A stretch of DNA of 53,219 bases from a virus. Its lineage: Duplodnaviria > Caudoviricetes. The notes under the pieces are model-generated. The model searched no databases. It was not told the origin of the DNA and worked only from the letters and a program-made list of their open reading frames with translations. Every line of letters starts with the position of its first letter. The first letter of the stretch is position 1. Both the position numbers and the translations under genes were made by a program. This document shows positions 26,897-29,534 of the stretch, piece after piece. The stretch lies in the IMG/VR virus record IMGVR_UViG_3300023109_001857, positions 1 through 53,219 of that record, one strand, 5' to 3'.

Positions 26897-27478
26897 TTGT
26901 TTAATTACTGTGCTATAGATAATCTCGCGGCACCAAAAATGGCTCTTGGCATTGAAAATCGAGTAATGACAGGAGCCCATTGGGAATATATAGAATCTAC
27001 CGTAGATACTTCTAGCTTTGACAAAGGCGACAGTAATATTATAAACTCGCAACAATTTGTACATTTAATATATGGCGATAACGGTCCATGTAGTATGTTG
27101 TATGGAGAAGTTGTTAATCCTATTTTATGGAGTTTACAAGACAAGACTGGATTAGAAATAACAAGTTTACAACGTGTTAAAGCAAATCTATTAACTCCTA
27201 ATGGTTCTACTGTTGATAATTACAATCCGCCACACATAGATATTAATAAGCAGGAATATTTAAGTATGGTGTATTATGTCAACGACAGTGATGGTGATAC
27301 AAGAATCTTCGATGACAACATGACAATGTTACATTCTAATACTCCAGCACAAGGCAATGCTATTATATTTCCAAGTAATAGATTCCATTGTAGTAGCAAC
27401 CCTATACAATCAAATGTGCGGTGTATCATAAATTTTGTGTTTACTGTGAAGGATATATCAGTTTTAAGCAAGAATTAA
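26897..27478 (+). CDS. 2OG-Fe(II) oxygenase
   Basis: RVKANL, PHID, YYVNDSDGDT, FHCS..P, R..IN. Confidence 0.8.
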   Translation: MFNYCAIDNLAAPKMALGIENRVMTGAHWEYIESTVDTSSFDKGDSNIINSQQFVHLIYGDNGPCSMLYGEVVNPILWSLQDKTGLEITSLQRVKANLLTPNGSTVDNYNPPHIDINKQEYLSMVYYVNDSDGDTRIFDDNMTMLHSNTPAQGNAIIFPSNRFHCSSNPIQSNVRCIINFVFTVKDISVLSKN

Positions 27479-27484
27479 ACATTT

Positions 27485-27572
27485 GGAGAGGTGGCTGAGT
27501 GGCCGAAAGCAGCGGATTACTAATCCGCCGAACCGAAAGGTTCCCAGGGTTCGAATCCCTGTCTCTCTGCCA
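27485..27572 (+). tRNA. tRNA-Ser with ACT anticodon
   Basis: Acceptor GGAGAGG/TCTCTCT, G discriminator, CCA, long variable arm GAACC-GAAA-GGTTC, anticodon arm GCGGA-TTACTAA-TCCGC. Confidence 0.88.
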
Positions 27573-27577
27573 AAGAC

Positions 27578-27743
27578 GTGTTGAGGTTGCTCCTCGACTA
27601 GTATGGGTTAGCAAGTCCCATATGATAAGAAGTGATGTCGCAATCACAACAAAAGGCTCGATGCAAGTATGCCGGCAGTGTATGTCGTTAGTGCGAAGGG
27701 GCGGAGCAGGCATAGTCTGCGTTGAAACCGTTAGCACGTACAC
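27578..27743 (+). ncRNA. Candidate structured RNA between tRNA-Ser and tRNA-Gly
   Basis: GC-richer spacer with consecutive hairpins and an 8-bp closing stem GTGTATGT/ACGTACAC. Confidence 0.4.
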
Positions 27744-27752
27744 AAACTAATT

Positions 27753-27826
27753 GCGGGTGTTGTGTAATGGTAAGACCTTAGCCTTCCAAGCTAATGATAG
27801 GGGTTCGATTCCCCTCACCCGCTCCA
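27753..27826 (+). tRNA. tRNA-Gly(TCC)
   Basis: GCGGGTG/CACCCGC, TTAGC-CTTCCAA-GCTAA, ends TCCA. Confidence 0.93.
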
Positions 27827-27856
27827 TAACAACAAGTAACATGAAAGGTTACAATA

Positions 27857-28096
27857 ATGGGTCGAGTCTTTATTGAAGAAGCAATGGATGTTACAGGCAT
27901 CAATCGAACTGACTTAGTTGCAGTATGTGCTTATCTAAAACGTTCAGGGCAAGCATCAAGTGCAGCAGATGCACTTCGTTTGCTTGAAACTGGAACTATT
28001 GATAAACACATTATCGAAGAACAAATGATTAACTCTTTTATGGTTGAGAAGACTGACACTCCAAAAGTTGAGGAAGAAGAAGACTCTATAGAATAA
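27857..28096 (+). CDS. Hypothetical protein within tRNA cluster
   Basis: 79 aa, SD AAGG. Confidence 0.65.
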   Translation: MGRVFIEEAMDVTGINRTDLVAVCAYLKRSGQASSAADALRLLETGTIDKHIIEEQMINSFMVEKTDTPKVEEEEDSIE

Positions 28097-28103
28097 GTAC
28101 TGT

Positions 28104-28181
28104 ATGATAAACAAATGTCCTGAATGTAAATTTGAATTGGATCATAATGATTTTTGTCCAATTTGTAGAGTAAAAAGATAA
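28104..28181 (+). CDS. 25-aa zinc-ribbon micro-protein
   Basis: MINKCPECKFELDHNDFCPICRVKR (two CPxC); TAAGTA 4 nt before ATG. Confidence 0.55.
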   Translation: MINKCPECKFELDHNDFCPICRVKR

Positions 28182-28182
28182 T

Positions 28183-28258
28183 GCCGCAATAGCTCAGTTG
28201 GTAGAGCAACTGATTTGTAATCAGTAGGTCCCGGGTTCAAATCCTGGTTGCGGCACCA
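28183..28258 (+). tRNA. tRNA-Thr(TGT)
   Basis: GCCGCAA/TTGCGGC, ACTGA-TTTGTAA-TCAGT, ACCA. Confidence 0.95.
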
Positions 28259-28372
28259 TATAACAACACCTTCCAGGCTTAACATAGTTAGCTCAATACC
28301 GGAAGGTTACTTATGACCCAAGGTCACTGTACTGGTCTTGTCACCTGTATACACCTGGGTCTTCCTAACAAT

Positions 28373-28457
28373 GCGCCTGTGGTGAAATTGGTAGACACGC
28401 TAGATTTAGGTTCTAGTGCTTTACGGCGTGGGGGTTCAAGTCCCTCCAGGCGCACCA
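28373..28457 (+). tRNA. tRNA-Leu(TAG)
   Basis: GCGCCTG/CAGGCGC, CTAGA-TTTAGGT-TCTAG, long variable arm, ACCA. Confidence 0.95.
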
Positions 28458-28477
28458 AATAAAAGTTAACTTAATGG

Positions 28478-28511
28478 TTGACAACAATAAATAAAGAGTG
28501 TATTATAAATA
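28478..28511 (+). promoter_or_regulatory. Dual promoter (sigma70 plus late) for the leader/tRNA unit
   Basis: TTGACA-N17-TATTAT overlapping TATAAATA (28504-28511). Confidence 0.7.
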
Positions 28512-28537
28512 CATAATAAGAAATAAGGAATACTAAC

Positions 28538-28606
28538 GTGTTAAGAACAGTACAACAATCGTCATCACAGAATTGGTGCCCACCAAAAGGTAGGGGTATG
28601 TCTTAA
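28538..28606 (+). CDS. Putative attenuator leader peptide MLRTVQQSSSQNWCPPKGRGMS
   Basis: GTG start 8 nt after SD AAGGA; its 3' end is complementary to the 5' arm of the downstream terminator. Confidence 0.7.
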   Translation: MLRTVQQSSSQNWCPPKGRGMS

Positions 28607-28635
28607 CGCGACTTTGTAGAAAAGTTATATTAAGC

Positions 28636-28671
28636 AAGCCCCTAGCACTAATAATGTTAGGGGCTTTTTTT
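28636..28671 (+). terminator. Rho-independent terminator (attenuator 3:4 hairpin) upstream of tRNA-Trp/Pro/Gln
   Basis: AAGCCCCTAGCA-CTAATAA-TGTTAGGGGCTT followed by T-run. Confidence 0.88.
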
Positions 28672-28692
28672 GTGGAGGAATAAAAAGTTTAA

Positions 28693-28776
28693 GTCGGGTC
28701 GGTACAGTTGGAGTGGTACACTGGTCTCCAAAACCAGGACGAGAGTCAGGGGGTTCGAATCCCTCACCCGATGCCA
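28693..28776 (+). tRNA. tRNA-Trp(CCA) with extended variable arm
   Basis: GTCGGGT/ACCCGAT, CTGGT-CTCCAAA-ACCAG, variable GAC-GAGA-GTC-A, GCCA end. Confidence 0.88.
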
Positions 28777-28781
28777 AATAA

Positions 28782-28858
28782 CTCGATGTAGCACAGTCTG
28801 GCAGTGCGTTCGCTTTGGGAGCGAAAGGTCGTAGGTTCGAATCCTACCATCGAGACCA
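28782..28858 (+). tRNA. tRNA-Pro(TGG)
   Basis: CTCGATG/CATCGAG, TTCGC-TTTGGGA-GCGAA, ACCA. Confidence 0.95.
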
Positions 28859-28863
28859 AGTTT

Positions 28864-28938
28864 TGGGGAGTAGCCAAGCGGTAAGGCAACAGGTTTTGAT
28901 CCTGTGTACCGAAGGTTCGAATCCTTCCTCCCCAGCCA
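28864..28938 (+). tRNA. tRNA-Gln(TTG)
   Basis: TGGGGAG/CTCCCCA, ACAGG-TTTTGAT-CCTGT, GCCA. Confidence 0.95.
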
Positions 28939-28948
28939 ATTTAAATGG

Positions 28949-28995
28949 TTGACAAACGGTACTAATTATCGTATAATAGTTATATTAATTAGGCA
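28949..28995 (+). promoter_or_regulatory. sigma70 promoter with repeated leader motif
   Basis: TTGACA-N17-TATAATAGTTATATTAATTAGGCA (24 bp identical to 21793-21816). Confidence 0.75.
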
Positions 28996-29012
28996 CACAA
29001 GGGTACAAGGCA

Positions 29013-29534
29013 ATGACAACATTTGTAATTAGTGATACACACTTTAACCATGCGGGCATCCTTGAGTTTAAAGATTACATTGGCAAACCTGTAAGAGGTT
29101 TTGATTCTGTTCAACAGATGAACGAAGCAATGATGGACAACTGGGTAAGTGTTGTAGGTCCAAAAGATACTGTTATCCACTGTGGTGACGTTCTTTTTGG
29201 TATGGACAAAGCTGACTGGATGGCTGCAAACTTTGCAAAGTTACCTGGTAAGAAAAGGCTTGTTGTTGGTAACCACGACAACTTGAAAATACTTGCTCCG
29301 TTCTTTAAGGATATGCAGTTGTGGATTGATATGAGCGACAAAGGTTTGTTGTTTAGTCACACTCCACAGCATCCAAGTACACTTGCTGAAAGTCATAGGT
29401 TTGGTGATAAGCCGTTATTAAACGTTCACGGACACATCCACACTAACCCTTCACCAGAAGGACCATACAAGTGTGTTTGTGTTGAGCAAATCAACTACAC
29501 TCCAATTAACATTGAGGAATTAAGGATTGTATAA
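29013..29534 (+). CDS. Calcineurin-like metallophosphoesterase
   Basis: SDTHFNH, HCGD, GNHD, SH.P, NVHGHIH. Confidence 0.9.
   Translation: MTTFVISDTHFNHAGILEFKDYIGKPVRGFDSVQQMNEAMMDNWVSVVGPKDTVIHCGDVLFGMDKADWMAANFAKLPGKKRLVVGNHDNLKILAPFFKDMQLWIDMSDKGLLFSHTPQHPSTLAESHRFGDKPLLNVHGHIHTNPSPEGPYKCVCVEQINYTPINIEELRIV

Follow-up and report, generated by a model that had tools for sequence, protein, structure and literature searches.

Leader-peptide attenuators such as trpL of Escherichia coli and the leaders of his, phe, leu and pheST are built from a promoter, a short open reading frame (ORF) with sensor codons, RNA segments that pair alternatively as 1:2, 2:3 and 3:4, and a terminator, segment 2 being masked once the ribosome has reached the stop codon. 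The same parts, with the same masking predicted, are present at 28478-28938 of the virus record IMGVR_UViG_3300023109_001857, a 53-kb fragment from an uncultured virus (completeness 14%, CheckV estimate) whose 53,219 nucleotides (nt) are called the window in the following. Judged by its sequence and by modelled folding, this unit probably gates the phage's own genes for tRNA-Trp, tRNA-Pro and tRNA-Gln by leader-peptide (ribosome-mediated) attenuation of transcription. It differs from the trpL class in several respects: there the regulated genes encode biosynthetic enzymes or synthetases, whereas here the tRNAs are the sensed product itself; trpL has tandem Trp codons, but this leader has a single one; an extra helix joins the start and stop regions; and the element resides in a phage.

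The thr leader (Thr/Ile) and the ilvGMEDA leader (Ile/Leu/Val) are multivalent attenuators in which any of several sensor codons leads to read-through. Several sensor codons are also found in the phage leaders, but here the set of codons is rewritten between close relatives along with the gain and loss of tRNA genes. Phage tRNA genes are usually viewed as constitutive codon-usage aids or as replacements for tRNAs destroyed by defence systems, and to our knowledge their regulation is largely unknown. Full-text literature searches found no description of leader-peptide or attenuator control of tRNA genes among the titles and abstracts listed, in line with the statement in a preliminary description of this locus that no phage tRNA operon was known to be regulated in this way. 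The nearest printed case is the trn operon of Anabaena sp. PCC 7120, likewise a tRNA array that is accessory, kept silent and induced when translation is impaired by stress (PMC8421152, PMC10272220). Control in that operon differs in that the repressor TrcR binds direct repeats of the promoter, with neither leader ORF nor codon matching, and the words attenuat-, leader and terminator are absent from the main text of PMC8421152. No Rfam family matched the leader at its gathering threshold, and by sequence it does not belong to the Rfam leader families; Trp_leader (RF00513, 19.7 bits, threshold 41, E 0.92) and Thr_leader (RF00506, 21.8 bits, threshold 55, E 0.44) remained below the required score.

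The unit and its conservation

All the parts listed in the preliminary description, namely promoter, Shine-Dalgarno sequence, ORF, terminator and three tRNA genes, were recovered in place (Table 1), and its count of six cognate codons among 22 (CAA CAA CAG TGG CCA CCA) for the three tRNAs of the unit could be reproduced. Transcription would be expected to start near 28513. The terminator hairpin has an energy of about -16 to -18 kcal/mol and the three tRNA genes score 40.6-69.6 bits with the Rfam tRNA model. A separate promoter between 28672 and 28692 had been named as the arrangement that would uncouple the tRNA genes from the leader; no promoter-like site was found in this gap of 21 nt, which is too short to hold an independent promoter for the tRNAs.

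Using the neighbouring phosphoesterase gene as probe we obtained 80 viral loci, 38 of which keep the whole unit, and a DNA pattern taken from the most conserved part of the leader added a further 71 stretches containing it; the unit is therefore more than a chance arrangement. A profile search combined with a pattern for a diverged group finally gave 122 instances on related viral contigs, of which 119 are complete, with 64 distinct leaders. As expected of homologous loci in the preliminary description, the ORF is kept and is intact in all 63 leaders free of N, against 24 and 16 of the 63 with the other two frames open over an equal span. The leader peptides have 18-22 codons with all length differences in frame, and an SD-like (Shine-Dalgarno-like) motif is present in 63/63 leaders (AAGGA in 49), a short ORF and its ribosome-binding site thus being kept together as is typical for leader-peptide attenuators. 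GTTGAC of the promoter is invariant in 25/25 aligned relatives, and 48 of 62 relatives fit a strict promoter pattern. TGG occurs in 64/64 leaders, with Trp as the sole invariant residue of the peptide.

The gene directly behind the terminator is tRNA-Trp(CCA) in 62 of the 64 cases according to ARAGORN and was recognised by eye in the other two, one of them truncated at the contig end and one carrying a mismatch in the anticodon stem (L117, minus strand, directly after the terminator). In 40/62 relatives the T-run and tRNA-Trp are 0-11 nt apart, too close for an independent promoter, and in 17 relatives an insert of 70-131 nt separates the terminator from tRNA-Trp. The insert (about 90 nt in some relatives) gave no ARAGORN call and no Rfam match at gathering score. 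The only one that was folded, from L006 (3690-3770), adopts a cloverleaf in which a 10-bp stem closes off three hairpins, and by inspection no promoter consensus was seen in it; the insert may be a degenerate tRNA or a tRNA-like RNA. The tRNA-Trp(CCA) genes themselves are either 74-76 nt or 84-88 nt long in the relatives examined (L024, L025, L029-L031, L065-L067, L079, L080), which means that some members of the family have the extra arm and others lack it.

Table 1. Features of the leader and tRNA unit in the window.
Feature	Position	Strand	Remarks
Sigma-70-type promoter	28478-28506	+	TTGACA 28478-28483, 17 nt, TATTAT 28501-28506; 11/12 matches
Shine-Dalgarno AAGGA	28525-28529	+	8 nt ahead of GTG 28538
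Leader ORF MLRTVQQSSSQNWCPPKGRGMS	28538-28606	+	22 codons + TAA (28604-28606), GTG start
Closing helix, 5' strand	28537-28546	+	includes GTG start; pairs with 28601-28610 (10 bp)
Trp codon TGG	28574-28576	+	invariant; proposed main sensor; neighbours AAT, TGC, CCA CCA
Segment 1 CCCACC	28579-28584	+	pairs with GGTAGGG 28589-28595 (1:2 protector hairpin)
Segment 2 TAGGGGTATGTCTTAACGCG	28591-28610	+	ORF end and stop codon; partner is segment 1 plus start region, or segment 3
Small A/U hairpin GACTTT GTAGA AAAGTT	28610-28626	+	antiterminator tip
Segment 3	28630-28647	+	TTAAGC and terminator 5' arm (AAGCCCCTAGCA)
Intrinsic terminator	28636-28671	+	12-bp G+C-rich stem (28636-28666), 7-nt loop, seven-T run ending 28671
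tRNA-Trp(CCA)	28693-28776	+	first gene past terminator; 84 nt, long variable arm; ARAGORN, Rfam tRNA
tRNA-Pro(TGG)	28782-28858	+	ARAGORN, Rfam tRNA
tRNA-Gln(TTG)	28864-28938	+	last gene of the unit; ARAGORN, Rfam tRNA

Leader codons and downstream tRNA genes

For the comparison of codons with cargo we used the 57 leaders with enough flank and searched for cognate codons at positions W-3 to W+4, counted from the Trp codon (W). In frame, 88 of the 107 occurrences of a non-Trp tRNA downstream have a cognate codon in the leader, compared with 15/107 and 11/107 in the other two frames. For the in-frame match, relabelling of the tRNA types, which leaves relatedness untouched, gave p = 8e-5; for the other two frames p was 0.63 and 0.29. 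Codons were present with and without their tRNA in 31/32 and 14/25 leaders for Cys, 6/6 and 6/51 for Ile(TAT) with its codon ATA, 9/10 and 8/47 for Ser(TGA), 7/8 and 9/49 for Tyr, 5/6 and 9/51 for Gln and 27/27 and 24/30 for Pro. In the 44 leaders that could be compared with upstream tRNAs, only 17/107 of these match (p = 0.88), against 60/69 of the downstream tRNAs of the same leaders (p = 2e-5), which argues against a mere genome-wide effect of codon usage. Furthermore, 26 non-overlapping pairs of nearest leaders differing in cargo yielded 14 concordant, 0 discordant and 39 uninformative cases (sign test p = 6e-5). The prediction that the codon content of the leader co-varies with the tRNAs behind it is thereby borne out.

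Individual pairs illustrate how closely the codons follow the cargo. A leader with ATA ATA TGT TGG precedes Trp-Pro-Cys-Ser-Ile and one with ATA ATA GGT TGG precedes Trp-Pro-Gly-Ser-Met-Ile; TGT TGG TGC CCA TCA is found with Trp-Pro-Ser-Cys, and CGT TGG TGC CCG GAA with Trp-Pro-Cys-Glu-Arg(ACG); TAT TGG goes with tRNA-Tyr and CGT TGG with tRNA-Arg(ACG). The positions richest in cognate codons are W-1 and W+1 to W+3, and the N-terminal and C-terminal parts of the peptide match in 24/110 and 10/110 cases. Of the Gln, Trp and Pro sensor codons proposed at first for the window, TGG is the invariant one, and the stretch from W-3 to W+3 carries most of the match in the family. The codons CAA, CAA and CAG lie 7, 6 and 2 codons ahead of TGG, and the distant CAA CAA and CAG as well as the Ser run are less clearly regulatory; they may still act, since in the modelled folding the antiterminator is favoured by early stalls as well, though not specifically.

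The invariant UGG, the terminator/antiterminator pair and the constant position of tRNA-Trp as first gene would also suit a switch of the T-box type, in which uncharged tRNA-Trp pairs with the leader UGG and translation plays no part. T-box riboswitches likewise use a terminator/antiterminator switch to read the status of a tRNA by way of a triplet resembling a codon. They act without translation, are longer and contain a conserved Stem I and T-box motifs, whereas the leader here is about 160 nt long with no recognisable Stem I, and the Rfam hits in 27000-29500, taken up to E = 1, include no T-box. As the Shine-Dalgarno sequence, start codon and open frame are conserved and the cargo match is in frame and extends over several codons beside UGG, we regard this explanation as very improbable.

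Another explanation starts from the peptide, with a nascent C-W-P-P chain arresting the ribosome and read-through then reporting elongation factor P (EF-P) or the general state of translation instead of tRNA supply. Pro-Pro motifs stall ribosomes without EF-P, and W-P-P in the leader resembles stalling motifs selected in E. coli. P or CP(P) comes after W in many of the leaders, and a stall at W-P would be correctly placed for antitermination. However, three leaders (WCLH, WCLY and WCLS) have no Pro after W, none of them with tRNA-Pro behind it (one flank being 254 nt long), and the flanking residues vary freely and track the tRNA cargo, including the synonymous choice of ATA with tRNA-Ile(TAT). 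The pattern therefore lies at the level of the codon and not of the peptide, and an arrest peptide appears unlikely.

Alternative pairings and ribosome position

The minimum-energy fold of the leader (-46.4 kcal/mol, z = -4.0 against shuffled sequences) contains both the 1:2 hairpin and the terminator put forward in the preliminary description, and in addition a closing helix of 10 bp between start and stop regions that had been overlooked there. Start and stop regions pair in all leaders, with an average of 10.7 pairs and -11.9 kcal/mol. The first base of the start codon forms A:T with its partner in 38 and G:C in 14 of 62 leaders, is mismatched in 0 and is unpaired, in a shifted register, in 10; the middle base of the stop codon pairs as C:G in 44, T:A in 17 and T:G in 1. 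Covariation was assessed on a 59-sequence alignment with 500 shuffles by counting cells changed on both sides. The protector helices, which belong to the 'off' state, covary, with 44 cells changed on both sides compared with 17.9 +/- 3.2 after shuffling, a value reached in 0/500 shuffles.

Within the 1:2 hairpin four pairs are the commonest pair in 17-24 of 25 relatives, and 75% of its cells are paired on the 59 sequences; for the small A/U hairpin the value is 95.5%. The terminator is conserved in 24-25 of the 25 relatives with compensatory changes at one pair, which is the result we use, as its helix was mis-registered and uninformative in the 59-sequence test (51% of cells paired). RNAalifold on the 25 leaders returned the 1:2 hairpin, the short hairpin and the terminator only and missed the closing helix because of the alignment register. 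GGGG of segment 2 is made up of AGG, TGG, GGG or CGG followed by GGT, and the GG is fixed while the amino acid varies between R, W and G, pointing to a constraint on the RNA; RNA helices, and not the protein, account for the conservation at the two ends of the peptide. In the region 28551-28576 and its counterparts in relatives, the letters ACAACA, read as Gln-Gln or Thr-Thr depending on the frame, pair with TGTTGG, which contains the Trp codon, and compensatory changes preserve this hairpin.

In order to follow the switch with ribosome position, the nascent RNA of 62 leaders was cut ahead of the 3' arm of the terminator and folded with a ribosome footprint covering -15 to +12 nt around the codon in the aminoacyl site (A-site). 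A first measure, which counted any upstream partner of the terminator arm as sequestration, did not discriminate (0.71 without ribosome) and was replaced by pairing with segment 2. With the A-site at W-3 to W, 61-62 of 62 leaders are predicted to pair the terminator 5' arm with segment 2 (mean -8 to -10 kcal/mol), in agreement with the earlier proposal that a stall at the Trp codon frees the 2:3 antiterminator. In the window this pairing appears once the ORF is masked up to the Trp codon. Pairing then declines to 45/62 at W+1 (-5.7 kcal/mol), 26/62 at W+2 (-3.3 kcal/mol) and 3/62 at W+3 (-1.3 kcal/mol), and a ribosome with the stop codon in its A-site abolishes the predicted antiterminator altogether (0/62, -1.5 kcal/mol). 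TGG is therefore the last codon whose stalled ribosome would leave the antiterminator fully free, with the footprint edge uncertain by about one codon. A switch by ribosome position is thus thermodynamically feasible.

A strongly structured RNA in which the ORF is surrounded, and its start codon sequestered, by covarying helices could also be a small gene standing alone, for a micropeptide or a structured small RNA, that has a promoter and a terminator to itself and happens to lie in the tRNA region; the tRNAs would then be transcribed by constitutive leakage past the terminator or from promoters upstream. Short A/T-rich ORFs are frequently open by chance, and in four relatives no obvious promoter belongs to the leader, which again fits this idea. 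It does not account for in-frame codons that track the downstream and not the upstream tRNAs, and it leaves unexplained why tRNA-Trp always abuts the terminator and why segment 2 mimics the terminator 3' arm; moreover, the peptide is poorly conserved except for W, its conserved ends being due to the RNA helices. We therefore consider an independent small gene improbable.

Proposed regulation and surroundings of the unit

In the attenuator model, transcription would begin at the promoter and a ribosome would load on the nascent leader. On reaching the stop codon it would cover segment 2, the terminator would fold and transcription would end before tRNA-Trp. If the matching charged tRNA is scarce, the ribosome would wait with TGG or one of its neighbours in the A-site, covering segment 1 and leaving segment 2 free to pair with the terminator 5' arm, and the polymerase would continue into tRNA-Trp, tRNA-Pro and tRNA-Gln. 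The new tRNAs would relieve the stall, which amounts to negative feedback. Because changes of cargo among related phages go along with a rewriting of the codons around TGG, the leader would work as an OR gate that responds when any tRNA of its own operon runs short. Stalling of the ribosome, the read-through response to it and the direction of this response are what we infer from the features described above. A terminator ahead of the regulated genes with no later promoter and sensor codons matching the supplied products, which mark the attenuator class, are both found here. The original reading as a trp/his/pheST-type attenuator is thus supported, and it survived the sequence checks that had been proposed against it.

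Several observations weigh against this reading or limit it. In equilibrium folding the antiterminator is also predicted without any ribosome (53/62 leaders, mean -5.2 kcal/mol) and with early stalls; folding therefore supports neither an 'off by default' state nor specificity for Trp. In the masking experiment suggested in the preliminary description, a ribosome at the Trp codon frees the predicted antiterminator and one at the stop codon abolishes it, but most leaders form it unmasked too. As to the covariation expected of the 2:3 and 3:4 stems, 3:4 shows compensatory changes at one pair. The 2:3 complementarity is kept by the homologues, as had been foreseen, with 89% of cells paired on the 59 sequences, a figure inflated in part because the pairing was derived from one of them, but its covariation is slight (5 doubly changed cells, with 2.4 +/- 1.3 after shuffling and the observed value reached in 28/500 shuffles) because most of its columns never vary. 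The diverged group has CCGGGGG:CCCCCGG in place of TAGGGG:CCCCTA, with CCGGGGGT pairing with ACCCCCGG, and judged by these letters it retains the 2:3 logic in a different wording.

On the side of the codons, TGG and the Cys and Pro codons sit in RNA helices and their conservation may therefore be partly structural. There is a single Trp sensor codon and no tandem run, and chance alone often leaves a short frame open in A/T-rich DNA, as the counts for the other two frames show. Of the 107 downstream tRNAs 19 are unmatched, with Met(CAT) at 0/5, Arg(GCG) at 0/4, Gly(TCC) at 0/2 and Glu at 1/3; the unmatched types are often distal genes behind a spacer of 42-47 nt. Codons also persist without their tRNA: TGC and the Ser run are present in the leader of the window, where neither tRNA-Cys nor tRNA-Ser follows the terminator.

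Metatranscriptome contigs from four libraries of three studies span the ORF and the terminator up to the 3' end of tRNA-Trp, and that of one relative reaches tRNA-Gln. No RNA run contains more than 0.32 of the sampled words, and the runs are stored in the form of contigs, which show neither transcript ends nor levels; the bridging contigs are compatible with read-through RNA, and contigs of RNA libraries can include carried-over DNA, a further reservation.

We also lean towards the wider view that these phages carry a self-referential, multivalent sensor of tRNA supply, with genes switched on only when their own codons are decoded slowly, for example during host shut-off or after cleavage by anticodon nucleases, and with codons rewritten along with the cargo. 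A purpose in countering host defence, such as tRNA cleavage, would be pure conjecture. If the model is true, phage tRNA arrays would be inducible, feedback-controlled repair kits instead of constitutive codon-usage aids, and an attenuator sensing the product of its own operon would represent a new use of a textbook mechanism, with tRNA expression driven by demand. The rewriting of codons with cargo would then offer a rare natural 'mutagenesis series' for the design of attenuators. For annotation, a short ORF and a terminator before a block of phage tRNA genes would predict which tRNAs are joined in one regulated unit.

Some further observations concern the arrays and their surroundings. Genes for Arg(ACG), Arg(GCG) and Glu(TTC) at the end of arrays are regularly preceded by a spacer of 42-47 nt (e.g. 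L026, L010, L012, L087, L109) and mostly have no cognate codon in the leader; they may form a separate sub-unit. Five arrays (L096, L134, L141, L059, L124) contain a tRNA with CAT anticodon behind the leader, and two of those leaders have ATA at W-3, so this gene could be a lysidine-type tRNA-Ile2 and not tRNA-Met. A blastn search of 28300-29100 against 50,697 phage records matched tRNA pieces alone (at most 22% of the query) and revealed no close cultured relative, and the ligase and topoisomerase share at most 35-39% identity with those of known phages. Four more tRNA genes (Ser, Gly, Thr and Leu) lie upstream of the unit; the anticodon of the tRNA-Ser at 27485-27572 is ACT (A34) according to ARAGORN, and ACT or GCT occurs at that position of the array in relatives. 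The 3' end of the tRNA unit lacks a terminator of its own, and 11 nt past tRNA-Gln a promoter at 28949-28977 (TTGACA-17-TATAAT, 12/12) drives the phosphoesterase gene at 29013-29534.

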